DNA of 44,047 nt, from NCBI GenBank assembly GCA_965363405.1, contig CBDTTR010000001.1:1-44047 (forward strand), written 5' to 3'. The notes beneath the pieces were generated by a model, which saw nothing but the letters and a program-made list of their open reading frames with translations, did no database searches and was not told where the DNA came from. A program made the translations under genes and the position numbers. Below are positions 3,390 through 40,064 of the stretch, in pieces. Position 1 is the first letter of the stretch. Each line of letters begins with the position of its first letter. The stretch comes from an uncultured bacterium. Lineage in GTDB: Bacteria > Desulfobacterota > WTBG01.

Positions 3390-3392
3390 TTC

Positions 3393-11552: not shown

Positions 11553-11581
11553 TAAATTTTGTTTTTTTAAAGGGAGATGAA

Positions 11582-15931: not shown

Positions 15932-15943
15932 GGGTTGAAGATT

Positions 15944-16294: not shown

Positions 16295-16323
16295 ACATAT
16301 CAGGGGTAGAGGTTAATATTTTT

Positions 16324-20274: not shown

Positions 20275-20775
20275 ATGGCAGAAAAGGAAAAGGGAAAAGA
20301 AAAGGAAAAGGTTGAAGAAGCACCGCCAGAGAAAGGGAGTAACATAAAATGGATTATTATTGCAATAGTAGTCCTGCTGGTTTTAGGAGGAGGTGGTTTC
20401 GTCAGCTGGAAGACATTCTTGAATCCTGCGCAGGAGGATGGCAATAAAGAGGATAAACCCGTAAGGGTTCAGCTGGGCCCTACTTTTCCTCTGGAAGTGT
20501 TTATTGTAAATCTGGCAGGTACTTCTGGCGAGCGATATCTCAAAGTGAACCTGGAACTGGAGCTTAAAGAAAGTTCGTTGGCAGCGGAGTTGCAAAAGAG
20601 AAGCCCGCAGATTAGGGATACCATATTGCTCCTGCTTTCTGGTAAGACCTTTGAGGATGTAGCAACATTTAAGGGCAAGACGAGAATCCGCAATGAGATT
20701 ACCGCGAGACTGAATACCCTTTTAGAACCCGGTTCAATCAAGAAGGTTTATTTTACGGAATTTGTGGTGCAGTAG
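20275..20775 (+). CDS. fliL: flagellar basal-body-associated protein FliL
   Basis: Short charged N-terminus, single TM (WIIIAIVVLLVLGGGGFV), FliL domain (ERYLKVNLELEL...IRNEITARLN). Confidence 0.9.
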   Translation: MAEKEKGKEKEKVEEAPPEKGSNIKWIIIAIVVLLVLGGGGFVSWKTFLNPAQEDGNKEDKPVRVQLGPTFPLEVFIVNLAGTSGERYLKVNLELELKESSLAAELQKRSPQIRDTILLLLSGKTFEDVATFKGKTRIRNEITARLNTLLEPGSIKKVYFTEFVVQ

Positions 20776-26009: not shown

Positions 26010-28089
26010 AGAAGCAACAGGTATCCAAGGACTTGCTCGCAATAGCGATGTAATACTGGCATTTGGTGTGATAGGGATACTGGTAATTATGGTGATTCCT
26101 ATACCCACTATCTTGCTGGATATGTTTTTGTCTTTCAATATTACCCTTGCTGTCGTTGTACTATTAGTTGCTATGTACACCTTAAACCCATTGGAGTTTT
26201 CTGTGTTCCCCTCTCTCTTACTGCTTGCTACCCTGCTTCGGCTATCTTTGAATGTGGCCTCAACAAGATTGATCCTCTTACACGGTAATGAAGGGACAGC
26301 CGCCGCCGGACAGGTTATCAGAGCATTTGGAAGCTTTGTGGTTGGTGGTAACTATGTAGTTGGGATGGTAGTATTTTTGATTCTGGTAATAATAAATTTT
26401 GTCGTAATCACAAAAGGGGCAACTCGTATTGCTGAAGTTGCAGCCAGATTCACTTTGGATGCGATGCCTGGGAAACAGATGAGTATCGATGCAGATCTCA
26501 ATGCAGGTCTCATTACAGATATTGAGGCAAAGACAAGGAGAGCTGACATTTCACGGGAAGCCGATTTTTATGGGGCTATGGATGGTGCCAGTAAATTTGT
26601 AAGAGGGGATGCCATTGCTGGTATTGTTATTACACTTATTAACATTCTGGGGGGGTTGGTCATAGGCGTGTTACAGCAGGGGATGTCTGTATCCACTGCC
26701 GCCCAAAATTACACCTTGTTGACTGTAGGGGATGGTTTGGTCAGTCAGATACCTGCCCTGATTATTTCCACTGCCGCTGGACTGGTGGTTACACGGGCAG
26801 CCTCTAATACTCATTTGGGAAATGACATGATAAGTCAACTTACCGGACAACCTCGGGCTGTTGCCATTGCTTCTGGTGTTCTCATTTTCTTTGGGTTTAT
26901 CCCGGGATTACCTACGATTCCCTTTATCATGCTCGGTTGCCTGGCTGGGGGATTGGCTTATATGACTTTCGAAGGCAAGAAAGCGGTTATGCTCAAGGAG
27001 GAAGAAGATGAGGAGGCAGTTGAAAAGGGGAAAGGATTGGAGAAGGTCGAAGAACTTTTGCCTTTAGATCTCTTAGAGTTAGAGGTGGGTTATGGATTGA
27101 TTCCCTTGGTGGATACGGAACAAGGTGGGGAATTGCTGGAAAGGGTTAAGTCCATCCGTCGTCAATTTGCGCTTGAGATGGGAATGATTATTCCACCCAT
27201 GCACATAAGGGATAACCTTCAGCTTAAGCCCAACCAATATTCTATTATTATTAAGGGAGTAGAAATTGCTGGGGGAGAACTCATGCCTGGATATTATCTG
27301 GCAATGAATCCTGGAGATGTTAAAGCTGAGATCGAAGGTATTCCAACGAAAGAACCAGCATTTGGCATCCCAGCCCTTTGGATTGGCGAAAAGGATAAAG
27401 AAAAGGCACAGATTGCAGGATATACCGTAGTCGATTTATCCACGATGATTGCTACTCACATATCAGAAGTTTTAAAGACTCATGCCTGTGAATTATTGGG
27501 TCGGCAGGAAGTGCAGTCTCTGCTAGATAATTTAGCACTCAATCATCCAAAAGTAGTAGAAGAACTGGTACCTAATCTTCTTTCTTTGGGTGGGGTCCAA
27601 AAAACCTTTCAGAACCTGTTGAAAGAACAGGTTTCCATTCGCGATTTGCTTTCCATTGTTGAAACCTTAGCAGATTATGCACCCATAACTAAAAACGTAG
27701 ATATACTGACTGAATATGTAAGGCAAAGGTTAGCAAGAAGCATTACCAAGCAGTATAAAACACCTGAGGGGGACATACCTCTTATGACGCTTGATGCTGA
27801 GATTGAAGAGCTTGTAAATAATGCCATTCAACATACGGAACATGAATCTTACCTTTCGTTAGAACCCGCACTCGCTCAGAAGATTTTGGCACAGCTTAAT
27901 AAGGCAATGGGAAAATTTACCAGCATGAACTATCAACCCATTATTCTCTGTTCGCCGGGTATTCGACCACACCTGAAAAAATTGACTGAAAGATTTATTC
28001 CCACTTTGGTGGTACTCTCTCATAATGAAATTGATAAACGGGTTAAACTAAAATCACTGGGGGTAGCAAGTCTAAACTATGCAGGTTAG
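25993..28089 (+). CDS. flhA: export gate protein FlhA
   Basis: I prefer the ATG at 25993 (AGAGGA RBS; overlaps the flhB end by 17 nt). Conserved N-terminal TM domain, FHIPEP-type region, linker, and large cytoplasmic C-terminal domain. Confidence 0.96.
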   Translation: MTRQIEEATGIQGLARNSDVILAFGVIGILVIMVIPIPTILLDMFLSFNITLAVVVLLVAMYTLNPLEFSVFPSLLLLATLLRLSLNVASTRLILLHGNEGTAAAGQVIRAFGSFVVGGNYVVGMVVFLILVIINFVVITKGATRIAEVAARFTLDAMPGKQMSIDADLNAGLITDIEAKTRRADISREADFYGAMDGASKFVRGDAIAGIVITLINILGGLVIGVLQQGMSVSTAAQNYTLLTVGDGLVSQIPALIISTAAGLVVTRAASNTHLGNDMISQLTGQPRAVAIASGVLIFFGFIPGLPTIPFIMLGCLAGGLAYMTFEGKKAVMLKEEEDEEAVEKGKGLEKVEELLPLDLLELEVGYGLIPLVDTEQGGELLERVKSIRRQFALEMGMIIPPMHIRDNLQLKPNQYSIIIKGVEIAGGELMPGYYLAMNPGDVKAEIEGIPTKEPAFGIPALWIGEKDKEKAQIAGYTVVDLSTMIATHISEVLKTHACELLGRQEVQSLLDNLALNHPKVVEELVPNLLSLGGVQKTFQNLLKEQVSIRDLLSIVETLADYAPITKNVDILTEYVRQRLARSITKQYKTPEGDIPLMTLDAEIEELVNNAIQHTEHESYLSLEPALAQKILAQLNKAMGKFTSMNYQPIILCSPGIRPHLKKLTERFIPTLVVLSHNEIDKRVKLKSLGVASLNYAG

Positions 28090-29314
28090 AAAATATCAAG
28101 CAGCAAGTATGAATGAGGCACTAAAACTGGTGCGAAGGGATTTGGGATCTCAGGCTATCATTGTGTCAACAAAAACAGTTGGTGGAATGAAAAATAAAGA
28201 CAGTTTTGGCAAGCAATCAGGAGTAGAAGTTATTGCTGCTATCGACTATGACTTTGATTCCTCTTCTCCGGAGACTAAATCTTTTTCCCAATTAGTCAAG
28301 GACAAGCTTCCTCCTATAGGAGGCCTCCCATCAGAAGGGGATTCGTTAGAGAAGATTCGCTATGAGCTCTCTGAATTGAAGAGGATAGTGAAACAATATT
28401 ACAATTGCTCTGAGGAAATCAAAGGTGGTTATGCTTACGGGGAACTGAAAGAACTCAAATGGATGGCGCAATTTTTCTTAAGGCAGGCAACGTCCTTTAA
28501 TCACGGTTATTTCCCTGAACATCTAGTTGATCTTTATTACCAAATGTTAAAACAGGATATTTGTGAGGAGACCGTTTTGAAATTGGTTGAGGAGTTAAGG
28601 GAGGATCTATCACCGGATCTATTGGGGGACAAGGGTCAGGTGAGAAAGAGTCTGATCTCGAAAATAGAAAGAGACCTCTTACTAGCAGGACCCGTTGATT
28701 TAACCCCTGGCAAAAACAAGATTGTTGCCTTTGTTGGTCCTACTGGTGTGGGCAAAACTACTACGATAGCTAAATTGGCAGCTAACTATGCATTGGAAAA
28801 GAAAAAAAAGGTTGCCCTGGTTACTATCGATACCTATCGGATAGCAGCAGTTGAGCAGTTAAAGATATACTCCAATATTATAGGGCTTCCCCTTAAGTCA
28901 GTATCATCACCTGAAGAACTTAAGCAAGTATTGGCTAAATTTGCAGACAAGGATTTAATCTTGATTGACACAGCTGGGAGAAGCCAGAGGGACCAGTCCC
29001 ATATTGACGAGATTAAAGGATTTCTCGAGCAATCCTTCCCTGTTGAAATCTCTCTGGTTATGAGTATTACCTGTAAAGAGCATAACCTTTCTGCCGTGAG
29101 TCAACAATTTGGTCTTCTTCCAATAGACAGTATCATTTTTACTAAACTCGATGAGAGTTATACCTATGGAAGTATTATTAACCAGCTGTTCAAAATAAAA
29201 AAGCCTTTATCCTATCTCACTACTGGTCAAAAAGTACCGGAAGATATTGAGGTTGCCACGAAGGAACGCATTATTTCGTTGGTTTTAAATGAAGCGGAAA
29301 ATCACTATTGCTAA
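28079..29314 (+). CDS. flhF: SRP-type GTPase FlhF
   Basis: B-domain N-terminus (RKYQAASMNEALKLVRRDLG). G-motifs GPTGVGKTTT, DTAGR and TKLDE. Confidence 0.94.
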   Translation: MQVRKYQAASMNEALKLVRRDLGSQAIIVSTKTVGGMKNKDSFGKQSGVEVIAAIDYDFDSSSPETKSFSQLVKDKLPPIGGLPSEGDSLEKIRYELSELKRIVKQYYNCSEEIKGGYAYGELKELKWMAQFFLRQATSFNHGYFPEHLVDLYYQMLKQDICEETVLKLVEELREDLSPDLLGDKGQVRKSLISKIERDLLLAGPVDLTPGKNKIVAFVGPTGVGKTTTIAKLAANYALEKKKKVALVTIDTYRIAAVEQLKIYSNIIGLPLKSVSSPEELKQVLAKFADKDLILIDTAGRSQRDQSHIDEIKGFLEQSFPVEISLVMSITCKEHNLSAVSQQFGLLPIDSIIFTKLDESYTYGSIINQLFKIKKPLSYLTTGQKVPEDIEVATKERIISLVLNEAENHYC

Positions 29315-29334: not shown

Positions 29335-30270
29335 ATGATGGATCAAGCAGGAACGTTGCGCAGTATAGTTGAAAAGAAGGGAAGGCCTGGGTCACGTATG
29401 AAGATGAAAGGTGAAGGGCTAAGGAATGAAGGAAATTTACCAGTTCAAGTCATTGCGGTTACCAGCGGGAAGGGAGGAGTCGGTAAAACCAACGTGGTGG
29501 CCAATCTGGGCTGTGCCTTAACCAGATTGAACAAGAGAGTATTAGTTTTAGATGCAGATATGGGGCTGGCTAATATGGATGTTATTTTGGGACTTTCTCC
29601 TAAATATAATTTACAACATGTGCTCAACGGCGAGAAGACTATCTCAGAGGTAATCATTTCAGGGCCAGGAGGCATGAAGATTCTTCCTGCCAGTTCAGGT
29701 GTACAAGAACTATCAGATTTGAGTAAAGCACAGAAGCTTTGCTTATTGTCAGAGCTGAATTTCTTATGTGATGAGATAGATGTTCTGCTAATTGATACCA
29801 GCGCGGGTATTTCTTCTAATGTGATGTATTTCAACATGGCAGCTCAAGAGATCCTCATCGTGGTCTCGCCCGAGCCTACATCCATTACAGATGCCTATGC
29901 TATGATGAAGGTTTTATTCCTTAAGCATTCGAAGAATCATTTTAGGCTTTTGGTCAATTCAGCAAGGAATGCCGAGGAAGCTAAGGAAGTCTTTAATAAT
30001 TTGAGTCTGGTGGGACAAAAGTTTCTCAATCTCTCAATGGATTATTGGGGGTACATCATGCAGGATGACCATGTGGCGAAGGCCGTGAGGCAGCAGAAAG
30101 CGCTTGTTGAGCGGTATCCTCATTCTCCCGCTAGCAGATGTTTCTCTGATCTTGCTAAGAGAGTTTGCGAAAATCAACCCAATACCAGTTCCAGAGGAAA
30201 CATCAGTTTCTTTTGGGATCAAATTATCGATAATTCCGATGCTTTACCTTTGGAAGTTTCTAAAATTTAG
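29335..30270 (+). CDS. flhG: MinD-type ATPase FlhG (FleN/YlxH)
   Basis: N-terminal FlhF-activator motif DQAGTLR. Deviant Walker A SGKGGVGKT. Confidence 0.92.
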   Translation: MMDQAGTLRSIVEKKGRPGSRMKMKGEGLRNEGNLPVQVIAVTSGKGGVGKTNVVANLGCALTRLNKRVLVLDADMGLANMDVILGLSPKYNLQHVLNGEKTISEVIISGPGGMKILPASSGVQELSDLSKAQKLCLLSELNFLCDEIDVLLIDTSAGISSNVMYFNMAAQEILIVVSPEPTSITDAYAMMKVLFLKHSKNHFRLLVNSARNAEEAKEVFNNLSLVGQKFLNLSMDYWGYIMQDDHVAKAVRQQKALVERYPHSPASRCFSDLAKRVCENQPNTSSRGNISFFWDQIIDNSDALPLEVSKI

Positions 30271-30412
30271 TCCTGTTGGATTTAACTTATCTTAAACTTA
30301 GATCAGGCAAGTGAAATACTGGAACTATGGAACGTTGGATGATGGCTGATTAAAAAGTCGAGCAATTAAACAGTTGGCAAATTAAATAGTTTAAAAATTA
30401 AGGGGAAGGAAG

Positions 30413-31174
30413 ATGAGAGGATTATACAATCAAATGGCAGAAAAAGATTCAAGTTTTAAAGATGATTTTACAAAAAGAGATCGTCTGATCATGGAACATG
30501 CCCCTTTGGTCAAGTATATTGCTAATAGAATCGCAATGCGGCTACCACCTCATATTGATGTTGACGATCTTATCAGCTCCGGAGTTCTGGGTTTAATCGA
30601 CGCTATTGAGAAGTTTGATCCTTCCAAAGAGGTGAAGTTTAAAACTTATGCTGAGATTCGTATTAAAGGTGCAATCCTTGATGAATTGAGGGCGATGGAT
30701 TGGATTCCCAGATCTGTCCGCAAGGTTATTAACGAATTGATGGGTGCTTATCATGAGTTGGAACAGCAACTGGGAAGACCTGCTAAAGACGAGGAAATGG
30801 CTGAACTACTGGGTTTGGGAATGGAGGAATTTTATAAACTGCTCAAGCAATCTGCAGGCGTACCACTAATCAGCCTGGATGTTCTAGTAGATTATGATGA
30901 GAAGAAAAGAAATATTTTGAGTTGCCTTGAGGATCCTAAATCTGTCAATGGCTTTGGCATCATGGGGTTGAGCGAGGTTAAAGATGCTATTGCAAAAGCT
31001 ATAGAAGATTTGCCGGAAAAGGAAAAACAGGTAATTTCTCTCTATTATCACGACGAACTTACCATGAAGGAGATTGGTAAGGTGTTAGACCTGACAGAAT
31101 CAAGAGTTTCACAAATTCATACTAAAGCCGTGCTGAGATTAAAGGTGAGGATTAAGGATTTGAAAAAAATATAG
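30413..31174 (+). CDS. fliA: flagellar sigma factor sigma28 (FliA)
   Basis: Region 2 (DDLISSGVLGLIDAIEKFD, YAEIRIKGAILDELR) and region 4 HTH (ELTMKEIGKVLDLTESRVSQIHTKA). Positioned after flhG. Confidence 0.94.
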   Translation: MRGLYNQMAEKDSSFKDDFTKRDRLIMEHAPLVKYIANRIAMRLPPHIDVDDLISSGVLGLIDAIEKFDPSKEVKFKTYAEIRIKGAILDELRAMDWIPRSVRKVINELMGAYHELEQQLGRPAKDEEMAELLGLGMEEFYKLLKQSAGVPLISLDVLVDYDEKKRNILSCLEDPKSVNGFGIMGLSEVKDAIAKAIEDLPEKEKQVISLYYHDELTMKEIGKVLDLTESRVSQIHTKAVLRLKVRIKDLKKI

Positions 31175-31260
31175 TTTGATTTTCGTAAGCTTATAATAAT
31201 TGTTTGTCAGTATATTTTTCCCATTAGAGTAATTGGTTTAGATCTACTTTTTCTAAAGGA

Positions 31261-32892
31261 ATGGTAAAGGTGAAGAAGCATACCATATTGGTTGTTGATA
31301 CCCAGCAGGATAGGACCGGAGGTTTGTCCAGGATTTTAAGAGATGAGGGTTATTCAAGTTCGACCGCTGGCAGTGCCAAGGAGGTTTTGGAAAAACTGAA
31401 GGAAAACCATGTTGACCTCATCATTTTGGATTGTGCGATGAAAGGTATATCAGTGAATAATCTTTTAGAAAGGGCAGAAAAACCATACTCTCCACCCATT
31501 TGTATCATATTAACCGATGAGCAAGAGGCAGAAAAAAGGTTATCAGCAGCTAACGGAAATGAGTATTGCTGGTTCTTGAGTAAACCCTGGGAAAGAGAAA
31601 ACCTTGTCCTTACTGTGAGGAATGCTTTGAAATACGGTGAGCTGCTTTCTAAAAACGAGACACTGCTAGAAACTGTTGCTGTTTTGGCAGCAAAGGATTT
31701 TTCGCTTGAGGAGAAATTACAGAGAATCCTCCAGCTTTCTCTTAAACAGATTAATGCAGAAAGGGGCTCTATTATGTTGAGAGATAAGCAGGGTGATTTG
31801 GTCATCAAGGCTGCGAGTCGCAAGCGGCTTATAGGGGTAAAACAATTTATAGAGGATGAAAAGAGTGTCTCTGCCTGGGTGGTAAAAAATGGAAAATCGA
31901 TTCTTGTAGAACACAGCAAAGAAGATCCACGTTTTAATCCTCCTGAGGAAGCTTTATACAAAACGGACAACTTTCTTTGTGTGCCCATAAAAAATGAAAA
32001 AGGTGTTGTTATTGGTGTTTTTAATGTTACCGACAAGAGTGATGGAAGATCAATTACTGAAGAGGATGAGATTATTCTTTCAGGATTTATAAGCAGAATT
32101 GTAATGTTAATTGAAAATGCACAGCTTAAGGAAGACCTGGAGGAGGAGAGGAGGCGACTAAAAATAAAAAACAAAGAACTCCTTGCTTTGGAGCAGATGA
32201 GAGAGGATTTAATTAATATGATTATCCATGATCTGAAGGGCCCTCTGGGGGAGATTACAGCTAATTTGGATCTTTTAAGCTATGTGCAATTAGAAAGCCA
32301 AGACAGAGAGTGTTTGGATACCGCTATCCAAGGTGGTGAAAATCTTCTCAGGATGATCCTTAATATGTTGGATGTAAGGAAGATGGAAGAGGGTAAACTC
32401 AAACTTCATTACGAAGAGCTTGATGTATGCGAGTTGATTGAAGGTGTTATCGAAAAAATAAAAACACTGATTAAGCAGAAGGGGATGGAAGTAAAAACAG
32501 TGATTGATGAAAATGTTTTTACTTGGGTGGCAGATAGATCTCTCATTGAAAGAGTTCTTATTAATCTTCTAAATAATGCCATAAGGTATTCACATCAAGG
32601 AGGGAAGGTAGAGATCAGGAGCAGGTATAGTCATGAGAGCAAGCAACTCCAGATGGAAGTGAGAGATAATGGAAAGGGGATACCCAGGGAATTTCAGCAA
32701 AAGATTTTTGAGAAGTTTGGTCAAGTAGATGCTGATTTTTCTGATAGAAAGAACAGTACTGGCTTGGGATTGACATTTTGCAGAATGGCAGTTGAAGCTC
32801 ATCAGGGAAAAATCTGGGTTGAAAGTGGAGAAGAAAAAGGAAGCAGGTTCATCTTCTTACTTCCCTTGATGCAGAAAAGTGCTTTGACTTGA
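31261..32892 (+). CDS. hybrid REC-GAF-histidine kinase
   Basis: REC (ILVVD, LIILDCAM, FLSKPW), GAF (LQRILQLSLKQINAERGSIMLRD), H-box IIHDLKGPLG, N-box LINLLNNAIRYS, G1 RDNGKGI, G2 STGLGLTFC. No TM segment. Confidence 0.9.
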   Translation: MVKVKKHTILVVDTQQDRTGGLSRILRDEGYSSSTAGSAKEVLEKLKENHVDLIILDCAMKGISVNNLLERAEKPYSPPICIILTDEQEAEKRLSAANGNEYCWFLSKPWERENLVLTVRNALKYGELLSKNETLLETVAVLAAKDFSLEEKLQRILQLSLKQINAERGSIMLRDKQGDLVIKAASRKRLIGVKQFIEDEKSVSAWVVKNGKSILVEHSKEDPRFNPPEEALYKTDNFLCVPIKNEKGVVIGVFNVTDKSDGRSITEEDEIILSGFISRIVMLIENAQLKEDLEEERRRLKIKNKELLALEQMREDLINMIIHDLKGPLGEITANLDLLSYVQLESQDRECLDTAIQGGENLLRMILNMLDVRKMEEGKLKLHYEELDVCELIEGVIEKIKTLIKQKGMEVKTVIDENVFTWVADRSLIERVLINLLNNAIRYSHQGGKVEIRSRYSHESKQLQMEVRDNGKGIPREFQQKIFEKFGQVDADFSDRKNSTGLGLTFCRMAVEAHQGKIWVESGEEKGSRFIFLLPLMQKSALT

Positions 32893-32909
32893 GAGATTGA
32901 TAAGGTGAG

Positions 32910-34079
32910 GTGACGGTCTTGAAAGACTCAAAAGAAATGAAAATACTAATTATTGATGATATGCCCAATATGGTCAGGACCATTAAAAATATGCTTCGTC
33001 ATCTCGGCTACCGTCATACTGCAGAAGCAGGAGATGGGTTGGCAGCATGGAAGGTGTTGAAGAATGATACAGTTGATTTTGTGATAGCAGACTGGAATAT
33101 GCCTAATATGACGGGTATTGATTTGTTGCGCAAAGTCAGGTTGGATGAAAGTCTTAAAGATATACCTTTTTTAATGGTTACTGCAGAAGTAGATGAAGAA
33201 ACTATAGCTGAGGCAGCCGAGACAGAGGTCGATGGTTATGTTATTAAACCTTTTGTGGCTAAAACCTTAGAAGAAAATATTCAAAAAATTCTGGAGAGGA
33301 GGAACAGTCCAGATGAAGTGGATACTTGTTTAAAATTGGGCAATGTCTACGCAAACTCAGGGAGATTGGAGGATGCCTTGAAAGAATATGAAAAAGCTTT
33401 AAAAGTTCGGCCTAATAATGCTAGGGTGTACTGTGCCCTGGGGAATGCTTACCAGCAGAGAGGGGAAGTAGACGAGGCAGAGAAAGCTTATAGCAAAGCA
33501 ATAGGGATTAGCCCTCAATATTTAAAAGCGCATGAGAGTTTAGCCTGGGTATATGAAAAAAAAGGTGAAAAAGAAAAGGCGATCAAGTCCATCAAAGAAG
33601 CGGTAAAAATCAGCCCTAAAAATCCAGACCGTCAGATCAAGCTGGGCAAGGCACTTCTTAACACAGGGAGAAGGGAAGAGGCTAAAGAAGCGTTTGATCA
33701 AGCGGTAAAGGTTGATCCTGACAGGGCTGCTGGCAGGAGAATTGAAATTGGTGAAGCCTTTTTGGACATGGGGATGGCGCAAGAAGCTGAAGAAGTCTTC
33801 CAAAGAGTTTTAGGAACTGATCCCAATAACATTGAGATTTATAACCGTTTGGGTATCGCCTTGAGAAAACAAGGAAAATACCGTGTGGCTATTGGTGAAT
33901 ATAAGAAAGCTTTGAAGGTAGACCCGGAGGATGAGAACGTTCATTATAATTTAGGCAGAACCTATATGCAAGCAGGGATGGTTGCTGATGCAATAAAGGA
34001 GTTCGAGGAGTCTGTAAGACTTTGCCCGGATTTTGAGGAGGTAAAGATTATACTTCAAACCCTTAAGGAGAAGACGTAA
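32910..34079 (+). CDS. CheY-like receiver fused to a TPR domain
   Basis: REC is strongly CheY-like (KILIIDDMPNM, FVIADWNMPNMTGIDLL, FLMVTAE, GYVIKPF), followed by at least 6 TPRs and no DNA-binding domain. The start is uncertain: GTG 32910, TTG 32919 or ATG 32937. Confidence 0.88.
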   Translation: MTVLKDSKEMKILIIDDMPNMVRTIKNMLRHLGYRHTAEAGDGLAAWKVLKNDTVDFVIADWNMPNMTGIDLLRKVRLDESLKDIPFLMVTAEVDEETIAEAAETEVDGYVIKPFVAKTLEENIQKILERRNSPDEVDTCLKLGNVYANSGRLEDALKEYEKALKVRPNNARVYCALGNAYQQRGEVDEAEKAYSKAIGISPQYLKAHESLAWVYEKKGEKEKAIKSIKEAVKISPKNPDRQIKLGKALLNTGRREEAKEAFDQAVKVDPDRAAGRRIEIGEAFLDMGMAQEAEEVFQRVLGTDPNNIEIYNRLGIALRKQGKYRVAIGEYKKALKVDPEDENVHYNLGRTYMQAGMVADAIKEFEESVRLCPDFEEVKIILQTLKEKT

Positions 34080-34216
34080 AGAGCAAGAACAACTATTCAA
34101 ACGTAAAACGCGATAACCACTGTAAGGATTACAACCGAAAAATTACCAATCCTGTCATTTTTTAAGAAAGAGGGATTCCTAAGATTAAGTATTATGGATT
34201 TCAGTGAGGTGTGTTA

Positions 34217-34879
34217 ATGGTCGATGAGCAAAAAAAAAGTACAGAAGAAAAGGCCGTGAAGACACAAGAGGAGAGCGGAGATAAAGAGAAGCACTCTGGG
34301 AGAGGTGCAGATGGAATTGAAGAAGGTGGGGCAACTGAAGAAAGATCAAAAACGGAACTGGATGTAGAAGGTCTTGATTTAGAAGAATCTCCCCAAGAGG
34401 TTGCAGCTGATAGAAGAGAAGAAACGGTTCAAGTTAAAAAGAGGAATAAGAGAGAATGGGTTTTAACTTTTTTCTCCTTGCTGGTAATTTTAATAATGGT
34501 TATTGGAGGTGTATTCATTTGGGCGAGGTATTTTGCTTCAGACGATGGGAAAAGGCTAGCCTTGAATACTCCCCTGGGAGTTGTATACGAACTCAAGCCA
34601 TTTTTTGTACCATTGAATTCAAACGCTGAATCGGGGAAGTTTTTAAGGGCAACCATGGTTTTGGAATTGTTTAATGAGAGTTCTTATGAACAGATTGAGA
34701 GTCGGATTGAAGAAGTAAGGAGCAATATCTTTAAAATATTGGTCAATGCTTCTCCTAAAAATGTTGGAAATACTAAGGGAAAGAAGATCTTGGCAGAAAG
34801 GATTGTTTCAACAAGTAACCATCTCTTTGGGGAGAAGGTTGTGAAACGGATTTTTTTCAAAGATGTACTAGTAATTTGA
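34217..34879 (+). CDS. FliL-family paralogue with a long acidic N-terminal extension
   Basis: ATG at 34217 after a GTGAGG RBS. An acidic cytoplasmic region of about 85 aa, TM (VLTFFSLLVILIMVIGGVFIW), then a FliL-like domain (KFLRATMVLELFN...IEEVRSNIFKIL). Confidence 0.75.
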   Translation: MVDEQKKSTEEKAVKTQEESGDKEKHSGRGADGIEEGGATEERSKTELDVEGLDLEESPQEVAADRREETVQVKKRNKREWVLTFFSLLVILIMVIGGVFIWARYFASDDGKRLALNTPLGVVYELKPFFVPLNSNAESGKFLRATMVLELFNESSYEQIESRIEEVRSNIFKILVNASPKNVGNTKGKKILAERIVSTSNHLFGEKVVKRIFFKDVLVI

Positions 34880-34880
34880 G

Positions 34881-34907
34881 GTTTTAAATTACTAAGAGAT
34901 TTAAAAC
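34881..34907 (+). other. perfect 9-bp AT-rich hairpin just after the fliL-like stop
   Basis: GTTTTAAAT (34881-34889), a 9-nt loop, then ATTTAAAAC (34899-34907). No T-tract follows, so it is weak as a terminator. Confidence 0.4.
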
Positions 34908-34954
34908 GAGATGGTGCTTTTCCAGATGGATGAGTCACCGATCATTCTTAAGCT

Positions 34955-35188
34955 ATGAGGAAAGAGAAGCAGGATTTAAGGATTAAAGGAGGGGCCGCAG
35001 ACTTTATTCCAAACCGAAGGAAATATATTGGAGTATTTTTTGAATGCTGTAGTGCCTATGCCAGGATTTATATCAATAGAGAAAAGACGTCATATGCGGG
35101 TTGGTGTCCCAAATGTGCTCACAGGATTGAGATTAAAATTGACAAGAAAGGGACTGATAGTAGGTTTTTCAGAGTGATTAAGCATTAG
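34955..35188 (+). CDS. small basic Cys4 protein (putative zinc ribbon), function unknown
   Basis: 77-aa ORF filling an otherwise empty 400-nt gap. Paired cysteines ECC ... CPKC. No clear SD, so coding status is uncertain. Confidence 0.45.
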   Translation: MRKEKQDLRIKGGAADFIPNRRKYIGVFFECCSAYARIYINREKTSYAGWCPKCAHRIEIKIDKKGTDSRFFRVIKH

Positions 35189-35237
35189 AAATTAGTTGTG
35201 TTATAAAGAAGGGGATTTATTTCAAAAGGAAAGTGTT

Positions 35238-35265
35238 TTGATAATTGTAGTAGGTGTTGTATAAT
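35238..35265 (+). promoter_or_regulatory. sigma70-type promoter for the PAS kinase gene
   Basis: TTGATA (35238-35243), 16 nt, then TATAAT (35260-35265). Confidence 0.55.
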
Positions 35266-35301
35266 CACAGAGAAATTTAATTGCAGGTTAATTATAAAAG
35301 A

Positions 35302-36399
35302 ATGGAAGGATTAGCATCTATTTCAAAATTTATTATGGGTGAATCATTGGAAGGGTTGGTGGTTATTAACCCTGATTATAGTATATCCTATGCCAGTTCT
35401 CTTATCTCTCAGTTGACGGAGCTGCGAGATGGAGAATTGCAGGGCAAGTTTTGCTACCAGATATTGCAACAAAGGGAAAATCCTTGTGAAGGAATGACTT
35501 CCCCCTGCCCTCTGCGGCAGGTTGTAGAATCTGGTAAGCCATTTAGGTCTTTTCAAAGTTTAATTAATTCAAAAAAGGAAGAGGTTCCTTTTGCTGTTGA
35601 TTGTTATCCTTTTAAAAATGAGGAGGGAAAGGTTGTGCAGGCCGTAAGTATTCTGAGGGATTTGTGTGAAGCAAGCAAAATAGAATCTGAGCTGGGAAGA
35701 ATGTACAGATTCGCTGCTATGGGAGAGCTTTTCCCCGGCATAGCTCATAACTTAAATACGCCCCTCTCTGCGGTGATGGCGAGAGCGGAGATGTTACTAG
35801 AGAGGTTAGAGGGACTGAAGAAAGGGGAAGAAGAAAGAGAGAATTCTTTTGAATCAAAACTGGATAAGAGTATAAGGGATGCTGGTGTTATTGTGGCCAA
35901 CGCCACGAAACTTTCGGTAATCATAAGGAATATGATGCAAAAAGGATTGCGGGAAAGTGAGGAAACTCCCCAGATGCTTAATCTGAGCCACCTGCTGAAA
36001 GAGGAACTCCAATTTTTGGAATCGGATATGAAGTTTAAACATGAATTAAAAAAGAGTTATTCCCTCGATGAATCTGTCCCCTTTATAGATGGGGTCTATT
36101 TTCATTTTTCTCAAAGCTTTGTAAATATCATTAGGAATGTTATGGAATCAATTGACAAATCGGAAGTTAAGGAGTTAAGCATCAGTTGTAAACATGATAA
36201 AGATAATATATATATTGAAATCCATGATACGGGATTGGAAGCAAATATGATAACACAGGAGAATCAGCCGTATACTGCTGCGGAAAAGCGATTGGCACAA
36301 ACTCGAGAGTTATTGAAACCTTATGATGCTGAGCTGAAGATTAGAAGCGAACCTCATGATAACCTTCACGCTATTCGTATTCCCTGTAAAAAACCGTGA
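35302..36399 (+). CDS. cytoplasmic PAS histidine kinase with a Cys-rich PAS core and atypical short ATP-binding domain
   Basis: I prefer the ATG at 35302, because the TTG at 35281 would lie about at the predicted TSS. PAS contains FCYQILQQRENPCEGMTSPCP. H-box GIAHNLNTPLSAV and N-box FVNIIRNVMESI are present. G1 is reduced to HDTG and no clear G2 box is seen. Confidence 0.8.
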   Translation: MEGLASISKFIMGESLEGLVVINPDYSISYASSLISQLTELRDGELQGKFCYQILQQRENPCEGMTSPCPLRQVVESGKPFRSFQSLINSKKEEVPFAVDCYPFKNEEGKVVQAVSILRDLCEASKIESELGRMYRFAAMGELFPGIAHNLNTPLSAVMARAEMLLERLEGLKKGEEERENSFESKLDKSIRDAGVIVANATKLSVIIRNMMQKGLRESEETPQMLNLSHLLKEELQFLESDMKFKHELKKSYSLDESVPFIDGVYFHFSQSFVNIIRNVMESIDKSEVKELSISCKHDKDNIYIEIHDTGLEANMITQENQPYTAAEKRLAQTRELLKPYDAELKIRSEPHDNLHAIRIPCKKP

Positions 36400-36432
36400 A
36401 TAGCATTAGCCTTTTTTAGGAATTCCTCAAGT

Positions 36433-36460
36433 TAAAGTTTTGGAAGTTTCTTGTCGATAA
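36433..36460 (+). promoter_or_regulatory. sigma28 (FliA)-type promoter
   Basis: TAAAGTTT (36433-36440), 12 nt, then GTCGATAA (36453-36460), compared with the consensus TAAAGTTT-N11-GCCGATAA. It lies 62 nt upstream of a GTG start with a GGAGG RBS. Confidence 0.65.
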
Positions 36461-36522
36461 ATTAATAAAAAAGGAATTTTTAAGAAATTGAACCAGTTGT
36501 TTAATGTTTTGGAGGTTTTTTA

Positions 36523-36843
36523 GTGCTAAGATCTGTAGATATACAACAGATTTTGCTGCATACAACGTCTGTAGAAAAAATTCAACAGGTTCAACAGCAG
36601 CACATGGATGTGGAGAAAAAATACTTTGCACTACAACTACAAGAAGAGATGAATCAGAAAAAAAGTGAAGTGCAAGATACGAAGGAAGCTGAAGAGGCCA
36701 AAATAAGAGAAGAAGACAAGAGAAGACAACAGAAGGAAGAGTATAAGTTTGGTTCTGACAGAAACAAGCAAGGCAGTGATAAACATAAAAAGAGAGAATT
36801 GGAAGAGATAGACCAGGGTAAAATCCTAGATCTTATTGTTTAA
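36523..36843 (+). CDS. hyper-charged 106-aa protein of unknown function
   Basis: GTG start 7 nt after GGAGG. Q-rich N-terminus (SVDIQQILLHTTSVEKIQQVQQQH), then a K/E/R/Q-rich region. No FlgM-like C-terminal motif. Confidence 0.6.
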   Translation: MLRSVDIQQILLHTTSVEKIQQVQQQHMDVEKKYFALQLQEEMNQKKSEVQDTKEAEEAKIREEDKRRQQKEEYKFGSDRNKQGSDKHKKRELEEIDQGKILDLIV

Positions 36844-36869
36844 ATATCTCTCAATGAGGAGGGTGGGAA

Positions 36870-37331
36870 ATGGCAAGCTATACTGTTGAATTCTGGTTGA
36901 TTCTCCAAATGATTATAGAGGTTTTACTCTGTGGTATCATTGGTTACTATGTCTACCATGAGAAGAGTAAAAAGGTAGAAGTGAGACAGGAACAAGAGAA
37001 GATAAAGATACTTATGGGTTCACTGCAAAGTTTTATTGCAAAATCTGACGATTTGGACAAAAAACATCAAAAGGTACTAAAGCTCTGGGAGAAGATAGAA
37101 AAGAGAGGAGAGGCAATAGAAGCGTATATTGATTACTATGAAAGAAAGCTTAAGTCTTCCCCTGAAGGGGAAAAAGCTGGGGAAGGATCAGACAGTGTAG
37201 AATCAAGTGTTGCCTGTTATGAAAAAACCTCCCGCTTGATTGAGAAAGGATTGTCTGCAGAAAAAATTGCTCAGACAGTTGGGTTACCAAAGGGAGAAGT
37301 TGAGTTGATCATGAATCTTAAAAGGCAGTAA
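36870..37331 (+). CDS. membrane-anchored coiled-coil protein with a C-terminal HTH-like motif
   Basis: N-terminal TM (FWLILQMIIEVLLCGIIGYYVY), coiled coil, and C-terminal GLSAEKIAQTVGLPKGEVELIMNLK. From memory, the architecture resembles the DUF2802/SwrB-type proteins seen in other flagellar loci. Confidence 0.65.
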   Translation: MASYTVEFWLILQMIIEVLLCGIIGYYVYHEKSKKVEVRQEQEKIKILMGSLQSFIAKSDDLDKKHQKVLKLWEKIEKRGEAIEAYIDYYERKLKSSPEGEKAGEGSDSVESSVACYEKTSRLIEKGLSAEKIAQTVGLPKGEVELIMNLKRQ

Positions 37332-37358
37332 TTGACCATCCAGAAACACACATTTATT

Positions 37359-37406
37359 AGAAAGCAGGAAGTGAAAGTCAACATTCGTTCTTCTTGCTTT
37401 CTTTTT
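37359..37406 (+). terminator. Rho-independent terminator
   Basis: AGAAAGCAGGAAG (37359-37371) pairs with CTTCTTGCTTTCT (37390-37402): 13 bp including one G-U, with an 18-nt loop. The 3' arm runs into a T-tract ending at 37406. Confidence 0.8.
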
Positions 37407-37488
37407 ATGAGAATAGCTGCCAAGACGCTAACTACGAGAAGTGTATTAGAAAATAAGACAATTTATATAATTATGGAAAAAATTAAAG

Positions 37489-38655
37489 ATGTTAGAAGAG
37501 ATACATGCTGAATCGATAGTCCGTCAAAATTTTACTCTCTTACTATCCTCCTCACAGAAGAGCACATTTATTGACAATCTTGCTGTGGGTCAACTGCTGG
37601 AGGGAGAGGTTGTGAGGTTTGTAAGTGATCATAGGCTCCTAATCAATTTTAAGGGATTTGAGGTAATTGCTGAGAGTATGATTGCGCTTAAACCTGGACA
37701 ACAGATACAAACAAGAGTGGTTCAGACTCATCCTCAAGTGGTGATGACACTGATGACGGAAGGGATTCCGGACCCAAAAGCGCTCTCTTTGCTAAGATCT
37801 TATCTGCCGTTACAAGTTGATTGGGGAGAGGTGATAGAAAGTCTTGGAAATGTTTTAAATGATGAAAAACTTCACCTGCTGGAAATAGTGGTTGATAAAA
37901 GATTGCTGGAAAAAGTGACATCTTCTCTTTCTTCTTTATCATTTGATAAAGATAAAGCAGGTGATGGTGAAAAGATTAAGCAGTTTATGGAGAACTCGGG
38001 GCTTCTCTATGAATCGAAGCTAAAGGAGTTCTTATCCTTTGGGAAAATATTGCCTAAGCAACTTATAGAAATCGTTGAGAAAGACTTTAAAGGATTACTG
38101 CTTAAGCTTTCTCAAGAACTGGAGAAAGCAACAGAAAAGGTTGATGCGTATGGAAATATTGTCTTGAAGGATACGGTAGAAAACCTGTTAAGAACAGTAA
38201 ATTCATCGATAAAAAGGATTGAGCTTCATCAACTAGTTAATTGTTTGACCACAAAGAATGATCAGCAGCTGGTTTTTCAAATACCCTTGGTATTGCCAGA
38301 AGGTATTAAAAATGCAGAACTCTATATCCGATATGGTTACCAAAAAGGCAGAAAAAAGAAGGTTAACAAGGATGACTGTCAAATTGTTTTTCTTCTTAAA
38401 ATGAGAGGTTTGGGAAATCTGAGGATTGATACGCATTTAGTTAAAAAGAAGATTAGCTGTATAATTCAGGCAGACAGTAGAGAAATTGCCAGCTTTGTGA
38501 GTAGGAATATTTCTGAGCTTCATAATCGGCTAGAATCTTTGAACTATAAGACAGAGAAAATTTCTTGTATAGTAAGAAAAGAGAATATTAGACAAGAGCT
38601 TCCACTTCAAGGTTTTTCTTTATTTGAAATGAAGCTTATTGATATTATTGCTTGA
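37489..38655 (+). CDS. FliK-like (Flg_hook-type C-terminal domain) protein, second copy
   Basis: The C-terminal region LKMRGLGNLRIDTHLVKKKISCIIQADSREIASFVSRNISELHNRLESLNY follows the hook-length-control domain pattern. It is paired with a downstream FlhB_C-like gene. Weak RBS. Confidence 0.6.
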   Translation: MLEEIHAESIVRQNFTLLLSSSQKSTFIDNLAVGQLLEGEVVRFVSDHRLLINFKGFEVIAESMIALKPGQQIQTRVVQTHPQVVMTLMTEGIPDPKALSLLRSYLPLQVDWGEVIESLGNVLNDEKLHLLEIVVDKRLLEKVTSSLSSLSFDKDKAGDGEKIKQFMENSGLLYESKLKEFLSFGKILPKQLIEIVEKDFKGLLLKLSQELEKATEKVDAYGNIVLKDTVENLLRTVNSSIKRIELHQLVNCLTTKNDQQLVFQIPLVLPEGIKNAELYIRYGYQKGRKKKVNKDDCQIVFLLKMRGLGNLRIDTHLVKKKISCIIQADSREIASFVSRNISELHNRLESLNYKTEKISCIVRKENIRQELPLQGFSLFEMKLIDIIA

Positions 38656-38733
38656 TTGGATGGATCCCATCAATTACGTGCATGCGGTGGTATCAAAGGG
38701 GTTGTGAAAAACATGTTTTATAGTGGAATTTAA

Positions 38734-39030
38734 ATGAAGGGAAAAGAAAGAAAATTATTTAAAAAAGCGGTGGCTTTAAAATATGAACCACACAGGCATG
38801 AAGCCCCAATCGTAACTGCCAAGGGACAGGGGCTTGTTGCTGAAAAAATTATTGAAGTAGCTAAAAAAAAGCATATCCCCATCAAGGATGACCCCGATTT
38901 GGTGCAGATACTTTCCCAGCTTGAACTGGGAGACCAGATCCCTTCCGCTGTCTATCAAGTAGTAGCTGAGATATTTTCCTTCATCTACCATCTTAACAAC
39001 AAGTATCAGGAAGAGAAACACACCAGATAA
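38734..39030 (+). CDS. free-standing FlhB C-terminal-domain protein (FlhX/YlqH-like)
   Basis: 98 aa. AVALKYEPHRHEAPIVTAKGQGLVAEKIIEVAKKKHIPIKDDPDLVQIL...IPSAVYQVVAEIFSFIY aligns with the post-cleavage FlhB segment, e.g. this locus's own FlhB (LAIALEYNAQQMTAPKVIAKGTRLMAERIREVARKNQVPIMENKPLAQAL...IPMVFYKAVAEILSYVY). Confidence 0.85.
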   Translation: MKGKERKLFKKAVALKYEPHRHEAPIVTAKGQGLVAEKIIEVAKKKHIPIKDDPDLVQILSQLELGDQIPSAVYQVVAEIFSFIYHLNNKYQEEKHTR

Positions 39031-39068
39031 CCTTCCCTATCAGCACCCCTTTTTTTAATACAGTTTTA

Positions 39069-39129
39069 GCAGGTAGGAAGAAAATTCCTAGTAAGGCAGG
39101 TATTTAAATATTGATGATGAAAGCAGGTA
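39069..39129 (+). repeat. three direct GCAGGTA repeats in exact 27-bp phase, candidate enhancer for the flgF promoter
   Basis: Copies at 39069-39075, 39096-39102 and 39123-39129; copies 1 and 3 extend to AGCAGGTAG. They lie 73-127 nt upstream of the -24 GG. Confidence 0.4.
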
Positions 39130-39194
39130 GTGGGGCGAGAATAATTTTTATTATATTTCAATATGTTACAAGAATTCTTCCCGCTTGATAGGAA

Positions 39195-39210
39195 TGGCAT
39201 AGCTCTTGCT
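39195..39210 (+). promoter_or_regulatory. sigma54 (-24/-12) promoter of the flgF operon
   Basis: TGGCATAGCTCTTGCT, with GG-N10-GC spacing exact. It shares the TGGCATAG half with the motA promoter and ends 35 nt before the flgF ATG. Confidence 0.8.
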
Positions 39211-39245
39211 TTATTATTTAGAAAATATGACTGAGGAGAAAACCC

Positions 39246-40064
39246 ATGAGTTTTGGACTTTATACGGCTGTTTGTGGGAGTAGATGCCAGGAGAATAGAC
39301 TGGAGATCCTTTCCAATAACCTTGCTAATGTAAGTACGGCAGGTTTTAAAGAAGATAGACCGATTTTCAGAGTGTCTAATCCAAGGATAGAGAATTCCGT
39401 TGTGATTAACGATCCAGCCGCTCACAGGAAGTTCATGCTTTCCCAAAAACTGAATATAAACTATCCGGCATTTTCTGGTATCAAAACAGATTTTTCCACT
39501 GGACAAATGAAATATACCGGAAATCAGCTGGATGTTGCAATAAGGGGCCAAGGATTTTTTGTTGTGGATACACCACAAGGGGAACTCTATACTCGAATGG
39601 GAAACTTTTCCATAAACGATAAAAATAAATTGGTTACGCAAGAGGGTTATCTTTTAAAAGGGAAAGAGAAGAAGGGGAAAGGGGAGCAAGAAAAAGAGGA
39701 ACATATAGAGATCACAGGAACAGAAATTTCTTTTAATAAGGATGGTACGATAAGTGTGGGTGGTGAACAGAGTAATACCTTAACAGTCGTTGATACCTTA
39801 AGGGTGGTTGATTTTAAAGATTATTCAAGTTTAAGGAAAGAAGGTAGTAATTTATTTAAGAATGTAGGAGGTGAAAAAAACAAGATAAAAGCAGAAGAAT
39901 ATGAAATAGACCAGCACTTCCTGGAATTATCCAGTGTTAACGTAGTAAAAGAGATGCTAAAGATGATTGATGTATTAAGGACATATGAGTCTTATCAGAA
40001 GGTTATTCAATCCCTGGACGAAATTGATTCCAGGGCAACCAGAGATGTAGGTGCAGTTGCATAA
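39246..40064 (+). CDS. flgF: rod protein FlgF
   Basis: N-terminal LEILSNNLANVSTAGFK and C-terminal NVVKEMLKMIDVLRTYESYQKVIQSLDE. Positioned before flgG. Confidence 0.9.
   Translation: MSFGLYTAVCGSRCQENRLEILSNNLANVSTAGFKEDRPIFRVSNPRIENSVVINDPAAHRKFMLSQKLNINYPAFSGIKTDFSTGQMKYTGNQLDVAIRGQGFFVVDTPQGELYTRMGNFSINDKNKLVTQEGYLLKGKEKKGKGEQEKEEHIEITGTEISFNKDGTISVGGEQSNTLTVVDTLRVVDFKDYSSLRKEGSNLFKNVGGEKNKIKAEEYEIDQHFLELSSVNVVKEMLKMIDVLRTYESYQKVIQSLDEIDSRATRDVGAVA

Follow-up and report, generated by a model that had tools for sequence, protein, structure and literature searches.

The 44,047-nucleotide stretch of DNA analysed here (contig CBDTTR010000001.1 of assembly GCA_965363405.1, from an uncultured bacterium of the Desulfobacterota lineage WTBG01; hereafter, the window) carries 7.8 kb of accessory genes between the flagellar genes fliA and flgF. 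On balance, these 7.8 kb are probably a lineage-specific version of an accessory segment that is conserved after fliA in Thermodesulfobacteriota and neighbouring phyla, and that consists of several functional units, the first of which would be directed to the flagellar motor. At its centre are a histidine kinase (g1), a CheY-family receiver fused to tetratricopeptide repeats (REC-TPR; g2) and a second FliL (g3, FliL2) with a conserved cytoplasmic peptide, and these three travel together across phyla. An initial annotation had described the nine genes of the block (g1 to g9) as a candidate undescribed signalling module of the flagellar motor or export apparatus. All nine co-directional open reading frames (ORFs) are present on the forward strand, from 31261 to 39030 (Table 1). 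The block is not one module, since its genes fall into units that are also found separately and carry signals of their own, and it is not wholly undescribed either: g7 falls in the FipA/FlrD family, g8-g9 match the fliK2-flhX pair and g9 is an FlhX. The FipA/FlrD, FliK2 and FlhX families (three of the nine genes), FliL paralogues with a role at the stator and the position of a CheY after fliA are already known. What is new is the combination of a kinase, a CheY-TPR protein and a second FliL that bears a conserved peptide on its cytoplasmic side; this combination may connect two-component signalling with the stator. The evidence comprises observations on gene content, domains, synteny, a peptide motif and matches to promoter and terminator signals.

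Related loci were collected by a pattern scan and twelve neighbourhood look-ups with g2. In L081 (∼94% amino-acid identity), g1 to g6 stand in the same order. At a larger distance, the order fliA, REC-TPR, FliL2, kinase, g5-like, ∼100-aa g6-like, DUF2802, FliK-like, FlhB_C-like and flgF is found again in four or more diverged lineages; L091-L093 are among the loci in which the block is syntenic. Three independent lineages have REC-TPR proteins only 44-55% identical to that of the window (the contig of homologue P0006, 55%; L089, 50%; the Syntrophales loci L084/L085, 44%). Their products are 254-276 aa (g5-like), 98-105 aa (g6-like) and 386-387 aa (Flg_hook protein) long, and the segment runs through (FlhB_C-like) into flgF-flgG-flgA-flgH-flgI-flgJ-flgM. 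Since the gene order is kept at such divergence, the block is not a product of chance. The initial annotation had allowed that the homologues might be scattered and never linked to flagella; for the block as a whole, they are flagellum-linked and syntenic in relatives. It is worth noting that, in the same three lineages, a short HisKA kinase sits after FliL2 without REC or GAF, g4 is absent and the g5-like protein has no PAS; the REC and GAF of the kinase, g4 and the PAS of g5 are particular to the lineage of the window.

The first three genes are also found together outside such clusters. A trio of (GAF-)kinase, REC-TPR and FliL stands among housekeeping genes in L003, L004, L006, L083, L086, L094 and L095, the hosts being metagenome-assembled genomes (MAGs) of Nitrospinota, Nitrospirae and Tectomicrobia together with metagenome contigs. 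In L094, a lone FliMN_C (FliN-like) gene (15922-16275) lies 5 kb from the trio among housekeeping genes, and the 'non-flagellar' hosts may thus simply have scattered flagellar genes.

A plainer form of the receiver is found directly after fliA in Desulfovibrio, Desulfomicrobium, Desulfobulbus, Bacteriovoracaceae and others, where a 126-aa CheY is 50-57% identical to the REC of g2. Among the loci listed, this CheY is directly followed by a FliL paralogue in ∼33 of ∼38 cases, usually with a DUF6115/DUF2802 protein next, and some of these loci also encode g6-like and g8-like proteins. We therefore regard the block of the window as a variant of a widespread segment that reads fliA, cheY, fliL2, further genes, fipA-like, fliK2 and flhX. 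The clade of the window sets itself apart by the TPR fused to the receiver and by dedicated adjacent HisKA kinases. Kinase cores adjoin REC-TPR in many loci; among those listed, an adjacent HisKA kinase was found in ∼19 of 27 REC-TPR loci and in none of the fliA-CheY-FliL2 segments.

The g3 protein has an acidic cytoplasmic N-terminus, one transmembrane helix (hydrophobic at about residues 83-105) and a periplasmic FliL domain, and it matches the solved FliL chains 9hmf and 7sgn. The initial call as a FliL paralogue thus stood, with a PF03748 match above threshold, but the long 'acidic tail' attributed to it did not, as the acidic region is the N-terminal cytoplasmic extension. The identity of g3 to the canonical FliL of the window is 25% and the equivalog cutoffs of NCBIfam were not reached (50.8 versus 187), the latter indicating a diverged paralogue. 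FliL surrounds stator units, with a role that varies among species; solved structures show this FliL fold around the stator units. An A/U-rich perfect hairpin without a U-run (34869-34894) overlaps the stop codon of g3, in a region that folds with a z of -3.2.

The cytoplasmic extension of FliL2 carries a short conserved motif, always 31-57 residues N-terminal of the transmembrane helix, in an N-terminus that is otherwise variable and acidic. The motif reads R-K-T-E-L-D-I at the extreme N-terminus of the Nitrospinota and Syntrophales proteins, K-V-E-L-D-L-D-D-A-P-F-L in Desulfovibrionales, and a doubled K-A-E-L-D-K-D-G-I in Bdellovibrionota-type loci; the peptide of the FliL2 that follows the post-fliA CheY of Desulfovibrio is KVELDLDDAPFL. 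Among the loci listed, all 10 FliL2 adjoining REC-TPR have the motif, as do ∼26 of the 33 adjoining a post-fliA CheY. It was not found in the canonical FliL copies of the window and of the collected loci, and a six-frame search of all loci collected by then found it only downstream of REC-TPR genes. Moreover, it recurs among the top matches of an unbiased phmmer search of 1.8 billion representatives, in which ordinary FliL proteins of 160-180 aa are without it. The FliM of the window begins with MSQVLSQDEVDALL, containing LSQDEVDALL, and the FliL2 peptide is similar to it in make-up and different in sequence. The C-terminal CheY-binding peptide of CheZ is, we assume, also similar in make-up. 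A search for REC-FliL fusions among the long FliL matches gave none. One protein from the search with FliL2 (P0290, 391 aa) has a FliL domain preceded by an N-terminal Zn_ribbon_4. In the lineage of the window, the separate Cys4 protein g4 is encoded directly after FliL2, and the two observations perhaps point to a zinc-binding partner on the cytoplasmic side of FliL.

Most domain calls of the initial annotation were borne out by the profile searches, including those for g1 and g2. All four domains of g1 were matched, HisKA (30.2 bits) and HATPase_c (99 bits) scoring above their thresholds, and the H-box HDLKGPL and the N, G1, F and G2 boxes are readable, so that g1 is apparently a catalytically competent HisKA-type kinase. 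A Ser/Leu-rich ORF of 274 aa lies antisense within g1 (31350-32174, reverse strand) and is probably a by-product of coding-strand composition. In g2, the Response_reg and TPR families were matched, and the solved structures closest to its REC are those of CheY (1e-33 to 1e-40). The equivalents of D12/D13/D57/T87/Y106/K109 are present, with the motifs DWNMPNMTG, TAE and GYVIKPF. Against the CheY model PRK10610, g2 scored 132.4 bits for a cutoff of 189, and it is a two-domain protein with TPR, not a single-domain one. Its 442 full-length homologues all bear the generic database name 'tetratricopeptide repeat protein'. The window contains no cheA gene. In L090 (8247-11188), a gene of the CheX family of CheY-P phosphatases stands directly 5' of a PAS-kinase and REC-TPR pair, which fits a receiver that is handled like a CheY. 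In six loci from Desulfobulbia-type MAGs (L008-L011, L013 and L014; ∼11160-13270 in L008), a GAF-kinase and a REC-TPR gene are followed, in the place of FliL2, by a gene for a ∼700-aa protein without Pfam match. Finally, two kinases and two receivers without any DNA-binding output had been counted in the block; the two receivers and the absence of a DNA-binding output hold, but only g1 looks catalytically competent. The transcriptional two-component system of the cluster (PAS kinase and sigma54 activator) is encoded outside the block, at 2085-4754.

We propose that g1, g2 and g3, with g4 and g5 as accessories, would form a first unit, a two-component branch that has the motor and not DNA as its output. 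The kinase g1 would phosphorylate the receiver of g2, and phosphorylated g2 would act on g3, most likely by docking on the acidic K-T-E-L-D peptide of its cytoplasmic N-terminus. This would change the support that the periplasmic domain of FliL2 gives to MotA/MotB, and alter torque or speed. The REC is the likelier surface for binding FliL2, since it is common to the CheY-only and CheY-TPR lineages; the TPR domain, which co-occurs with HisKA kinases, would rather serve as a scaffold tying the receiver to its dedicated HisKA kinase and/or to g5. In turn, g5 would probably be a phosphatase or modulator that senses redox state or a metal by way of its Cys-rich PAS, because it keeps the phospho-accepting His and has lost the ATP lid and the G2 box. 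Post-translational control of the motor, suggested initially, is in our opinion the most economical reading of the kinase, CheY-TPR and FliL2 part; for the export-specificity switch, the other output then suggested, no link to the signalling genes was found. The specific docking of a CheY on FliL2 is put forward tentatively, and we consider it rather doubtful. We grade in the same way, as a possible but somewhat improbable generalization, a direct control of stator speed by two-component signalling, in which a phosphorylated CheY-family receiver, alone or fused to TPR with its own HisKA kinase, would dock on the K-(T/V/A)-E-L-D peptide of FliL2 in a manner distinct from the CheY-FliM switch, in Thermodesulfobacteriota, Nitrospinota, Nitrospirota, Tectomicrobia and Bdellovibrionota.

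Several points weigh against this scheme and the division into units. The evidence for a CheY-FliL2 contact is adjacency and a shared motif. Eight FliL2 that adjoin a CheY are without the motif, and these belong to Desulfobulbales- and Desulfobacterales-type loci and have very long acidic N-termini; in addition, REC-TPR homologues without a FliL2 neighbour are found in L002, L005, L008-L014, L088 and L090. Known CheY-binding peptides differ in sequence from the motif, for which another partner is conceivable, for example FliG, FliF or MotA. The REC of g2 is so similar to CheY that it could have CheA as donor and FliM as target. As for the wider evidence, promoters and terminator were assigned by consensus matches, which are no proof of function, no promoter was found for g8-g9, and the fractions given above describe the sample of loci and are not unbiased frequencies. 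Many of these loci are MAG or metagenome contigs that end close to the genes of interest.

In a rival reading, the genes would be adjacent without being coupled. g2 would then be an ordinary motor-switch CheY binding the N-terminus of FliM, with the TPR for localization or kinase docking, and FliL2 a structural second FliL for the second MotB; the order would be inherited and the E-L-D motif would bind another part of the motor. The close match of the g2 REC to CheY, the canonical LSQDEVDALL N-terminus of the FliM of the window, the two MotB paralogues and canonical FliL encoded upstream, and the existence of FliL paralogues with their own stator role, such as MotF in Sinorhizobium meliloti, all fit this picture. 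However, the REC-TPR/FliL2 pair persists in housekeeping neighbourhoods of several phyla, for which an inherited gene order would hardly suffice as an explanation, and among the FliL-domain proteins of the collected loci only the copies adjoining these receivers have the motif. Moreover, in a manual alignment, g2 has Ile at the positions equivalent to K119 and K122 of Escherichia coli CheY, which we take to be residues that contact FliM. We regard adjacency without coupling as possible but not probable, and continue with the motor-directed unit described above.

Another rival is an indirect effect on transcription or assembly. Through partner-switching or TPR sequestration, the two-component proteins would target FliA/FlgM or the sigma54 activator, and so time the late genes rather than set the output of the motor. 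The genes do stand directly after fliA, TPR domains are general protein-binding scaffolds, and a partner-switching route to FlgM (HptB/HsbR/HsbA) is described in Pseudomonas. However, no STAS, anti-sigma or phosphatase 2C domain is encoded in the block, the partner conserved across phyla is a FliL paralogue and not FlgM or FliA, and the trio persists without a nearby fliA. We find an indirect control of this kind very unlikely.

The signals found between the genes bear on whether the block works as a whole. The sigma70-type site before g5, already noticed in the initial annotation and the best in a 10-kb scan, is identical in L081, and L091 retains its -35 hexamer. Before g6, the sigma28-type site has been preserved in L081 and in the more diverged L091-L093 amid flanking intergenic sequence that changes; searching with this consensus also gave sites before flgM in L084 and L089. 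The terminator-like hairpin after g7, the sequence of which is conserved in L091, was spotted by eye and confirmed by folding, the standard terminator scan having missed it owing to its long loop; that scan gave nothing useful on the forward strand, and folding of five other intergenic regions revealed no terminator. An Rfam scan of 30000-40000 found no RNA family, and a search for repeats in the block gave nothing beyond short chance matches in two copies. With these signals in place, it is unlikely that all nine genes constitute one integrated module in which two kinases and two receivers jointly control the rotor/stator and the export-specificity switch after translation. Such a module would agree with the co-directional and tightly spaced genes, with the full order conserved in four diverged lineages and with the lack of a DNA-binding output in the block. 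Against it stand the internal sigma70- and sigma28-type sites and the terminator-like hairpin, the occurrence of the kinase/REC-TPR/FliL2 trio without the rest and of post-fliA CheY-FliL2-DUF2802 without kinases, the existence of fliK2-flhX as a separate FliA-dependent operon in Pseudomonas putida that is unlinked in some pseudomonads, and the described role of FipA with FlhF, which needs no kinase. A division into three units, namely g1-g5, g6-g7 and g8-g9, therefore remains our reading of the block.

Two putative accessory genes would complete the first unit. The description of g4 as a 77-aa Cys4 protein holds in its eight homologues (47-90% identity), in which Cys31, 32, 51 and 54 are invariant and which are always encoded between FliL2 and a g5-like gene. 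The ratio of non-synonymous to synonymous differences (pN/pS) of g4 against L081 (∼95% nucleotide identity) is 0.36, a value in which few substitutions are involved. No Pfam or NCBIfam match was obtained for g4 even at an E-value of 5, and its AlphaFold2 (AF2) model is small and beta-rich (predicted local distance difference test, pLDDT, 76.5) with no PDB fold match better than an E-value of 0.5; given this absence of family or fold matches, a zinc ribbon is a guess from the Cys pattern. For g5, the label 'Cys-rich PAS kinase' is upheld as regards PAS and HisKA and is not convincing as regards the kinase. No HATPase_c match was obtained in the profile search, FixL-type kinases could be aligned with g5 no further than G1 (DTG), AAEKRL stands at the G2 position, and the G2/lid region is missing, which makes a kinase doubtful. 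In its H-box, AHNLNTPL, Asn follows the phospho-accepting His. The orthologues of g5 (229-276 aa) are without PAS and give nearly no Pfam signal (13.9 bits or nothing), and g5 is a probable pseudokinase or phosphatase, as judged from these missing boxes.

The second unit, g6-g7, would be a sigma28-driven bicistronic late operon. The initial annotation had placed two unknown genes behind a sigma28-type promoter; the promoter match and the lack of a family for g6 were upheld, but g7 is a DUF2802 protein. No family match was obtained for g6 at an E-value of 5. Its 37 homologues are conserved at the N- and C-termini and include positional orthologues in L084 and L089, and its pN/pS against L081 is 0.11, again with few substitutions involved. 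The AF2 model of g6 is one long helix (residues 2-81) with a disordered tail. A likeness to YjfB-type small motility proteins was considered and dropped, as Pfam gave no support. The g7 protein has a transmembrane helix (hydrophobic at about 7-29), a coiled region and a C-terminal DUF2802, and in its stretch GLSAEKIAQTVGLPKGEVEL the G-16-E-3-L spacing is that of G110/E126/L129 in FipA. FipA (FlrD) is a DUF2802 membrane protein that recruits FlhF in Vibrio, P. putida and Shewanella (eLife 2024, PMC11620751); its gene lies downstream of flhA-flhF-flhG-fliA and is present only together with FlhF and FlhG (PMC11620751). In the window, g7 is 5.7 kb downstream of fliA, and flhF and flhG are in the same cluster, upstream. 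By sequence and gene position g7 is FipA-like; FlhF binding is predicted, and its product would help FlhF to place the flagellum. SwrB, a monotopic protein of Bacillus subtilis encoded after sigD, was also considered as an analogue of g7, and no sequence or family link was established.

The third unit, g8-g9, would be a fliK2-flhX pair, in which a soluble copy of the FlhB C-terminus and a partner resembling FliK would act on the export gate. The FliK-like call for g8 is partly upheld: its Flg_hook match stays just under threshold, and its positional orthologues in L084/L085 and on the P0006 contig carry a recorded Flg_hook match. BLASTP found no similarity between g8 and the canonical FliK. 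As first annotated, g9 is a free-standing FlhB_C-like protein. It matches the C-terminal part of Bac_export_2 and is 46% identical to residues 274-353 of the FlhB of the window, from just after the NPSH site to the end, which corresponds to the last 75 residues of the FlhB family; since it aligns to FlhB only after the NPSH autocleavage site, it is an FlhX by definition. With the flhB_rel model TIGR00789, g9 scored 112 bits, slightly under the cutoff of 117.35. The two genes are 78 bp apart; the search upstream of g8 turned up no sigma28-type site scoring at least 9/12, nor any convincing promoter of the pair. In P. putida, fliK2-flhX (PP_4328-PP_4329) is a FliA-dependent operon of a FliK-like gene and flhX (bioRxiv 10.1101/2021.08.29.457346). 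The function of the pair is not understood according to its authors, the two genes are unlinked in some pseudomonads, and the FlhX of Helicobacter pylori is HP1575 (same reference).

Table 1. Features of the accessory block and of its surroundings in the window
Feature	Position	Strand	Evidence or remark
g1, REC-GAF-HisKA-HATPase_c histidine kinase	31261-32892	+	Pfam: Response_reg, GAF, HisKA, HATPase_c
g2, CheY-like receiver with ∼6 TPR repeats	32910-34079	+	Response_reg 91.5 bits and TPR families
g3, FliL paralogue (FliL2)	34211-34879, start probably ATG 34217	+	PF03748 42.4 bits (gathering threshold 24.6), residues 125-221
Motif SKTELDVEGLDLEE in g3	34346-34387	+	Consensus [KR]-[TVA]-E-L-D-[ILVK]; follows 45-aa extension
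g4, 77-aa Cys4 protein	34955-35188	+	CC...CPKC, C-terminal GTDSRFF; 8 same-length homologues
Sigma70-type site TTGATA-16-TATAAT before g5	35238-35265	+	11/12; best in 10-kb scan
g5, Cys-rich PAS, dimerization and histidine phosphotransfer (DHp) and degenerate catalytic domains	35281-36399	+	PAS_4 and HisKA (29.4 bits) matches
Sigma28-type site TAAA-N16-GTCGATAA before g6	36433-36460	+	11/12; sole 11/12 match in the 44-kb window
g6, 106-aa charged protein, family without name	36523-36843	+	No family match; 37 homologues
g7, FipA/FlrD-like	36870-37331	+	DUF2802 39.4 bits (threshold 33.5); also DUF6115
Terminator-like hairpin and U5 after g7	37359-37407	+	13-17 bp, free energy -19.3 kcal/mol, z -3.8, 0/200 shuffles as stable
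g8, FliK2-like, C-terminal Flg_hook-like domain	37489-38655	+	Flg_hook 27.3 bits, E 3e-6, just under threshold 29.8
g9, FlhX-like free-standing FlhB C-terminal subdomain	38734-39030	+	Bac_export_2 (PF01312) 74 bits, profile positions 262-335
Sigma54-type site TGGCATAGCTCTTGCT, downstream boundary of the block	39195-39210	+	50 bp before flgF; similar site before flgF in L089
flgF, 3' of the block	39246-40064	+	TIGR02490 185.5 bits (cutoff 178.5)
Canonical FliK	12380-13768	+	Flg_hook 79 bits
Canonical FliL	20275-20775	+	95 bits
flhF	28079-29314	+	Matched to loci with Pfam-labelled genes
flhG	29335-30270	+	Matched to loci with Pfam-labelled genes
fliA (sigma28), upstream boundary of the block	30413-31174	+	Sigma70 r2/r3/r4; directly 5' of CheY or REC-TPR gene in most related loci

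The window is a single large flagellar cluster with every gene on the forward strand and a G+C content of ∼40%. At its head, a TPR-protein gene is followed by the genes of a PAS histidine kinase (2085-3389) and of a response regulator of the sigma54 type with HTH_8 (3393-4754); basal-body, hook, motor and export genes come next, among them one motA and two MotB paralogues, as identified in profile searches. FlhB, FlhA, FlhF, FlhG and FliA were named through matching loci with Pfam-labelled genes, and for several upstream ORFs the names rest on such matches and not on direct scans. Sigma54-type sites (TGGCAT or TGGTAT, N5, TTGC) were found at 4996, 12326, 17781 and 39195, that is, 50-75 bp 5' of ORF 5061, fliK, motA and flgF; together with the PAS kinase and sigma54 activator at the head of the cluster, they suggest a hierarchy similar to FlrBC/FleSR. 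Between 17854 and 20775, motA is followed by the two MotB paralogues (18642-19427 and 19546-20259, both with MotB_plug and OmpA) and the canonical FliL. As MotB and FliL are both present in two copies in the window, the two FliLs may serve different stator variants. Within 25674-25790, the canonical FlhB has NPSH at the autocleavage position, where NPTH is usual. Between flgE and motA, an ORF for a MerR-family regulator (15935-16294) is overlapped by an ORF for a 458-aa TPR protein (16207-17583). A 216-aa ORF after fliJ (11546-12196) has a weak MgtE_N match (27.4 bits), and its position is presumably that of FlbB/YlxF-type proteins in spirochaete and Bacillus clusters.

These findings matter in several respects. 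A FliL paralogue that is almost always beside a CheY-like receiver, with a peptide absent from ordinary FliL, is a testable candidate for signalling that reaches the stator side and not the switch. The FipA and fliK2-flhX families, so far described in gamma- and epsilon-proteobacteria, are extended to another phylum, and three families without name (g4, g5-like and g6; small proteins or a degenerate kinase) are defined that are specific to flagellar clusters. In the literature, we found no paper on the pairing of a receiver with FliL2, including any CheY/TPR-FliL link, on the motif, on the TPR/kinase elaboration or on the g4, g5-like and g6 families. Desulfovibrio vulgaris is a tractable relative in which fliA is apparently followed by the plain cheY-fliL2 pair. 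Its DVU3227 is annotated as a basal-body-associated protein and gathers loss-of-function mutations when motility is costly. We take DVU3228 (cheY) and DVU3227 (fliL2) to be adjacent and to form this pair, subject to confirmation of their positions.

Among the systems already described, one that resembles the block in layout is the operon flhA-flhF-fleN-fliA-cheYZAB-motCD-...-cheW-flrD of gamma-proteobacteria, where the segment after fliA likewise opens with a CheY-family gene, ends with DUF2802 and has stator-related genes inside. However, the block of the window has no cheZ, cheA, cheB, cheW or stator genes; their place is taken by HisKA kinases, a receiver fused to TPR, a second FliL and the small proteins g4 and g6. 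Within it, g7 (153 aa) resembles FipA (163 aa) in architecture, residue spacing and gene position. It differs in that its host is outside the gamma-proteobacteria where FipA was studied, that it also scores on DUF6115, and that its gene is preceded by g6, a conserved partner gene for a 106-aa protein, and by a sigma28-type promoter match. Similarly, g8-g9 share with fliK2-flhX a protein with a putative FliK-type C-terminus followed by a ∼100-aa copy of the FlhB C-terminus that starts past the autocleavage site, in or near a flagellar cluster, whereas g8 is sub-threshold and without pairwise similarity to canonical FliK, and no sigma28-type site was found before it.

For the first unit, the comparison is with MotF and with the CheY-FliM switch. 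MotF is a FliL paralogue of S. meliloti and Rhodobacter sphaeroides; in S. meliloti, stator activity requires MotF, which interacts with MotA/MotB (PMC9541039). Like g3, it is a second FliL-family protein beside a canonical FliL in one flagellar system; however, MotF has no reported receiver partner or N-terminal E-L-D motif, whereas g3 adjoins a CheY-like gene across several phyla, and the kinship of the two was compared at the FliL fold only. With the CheY-FliM switch, the first unit shares a CheY-family receiver encoded beside a motor protein that has a short conserved acidic peptide (E-L/V-D, then hydrophobics) on a flexible cytoplasmic end. The target proposed here would, however, be a FliL paralogue associated with the stator and not the C-ring, the sequence of the motif differs, and the receiver of the window has TPR repeats and a HisKA kinase as neighbour in the place of CheA.

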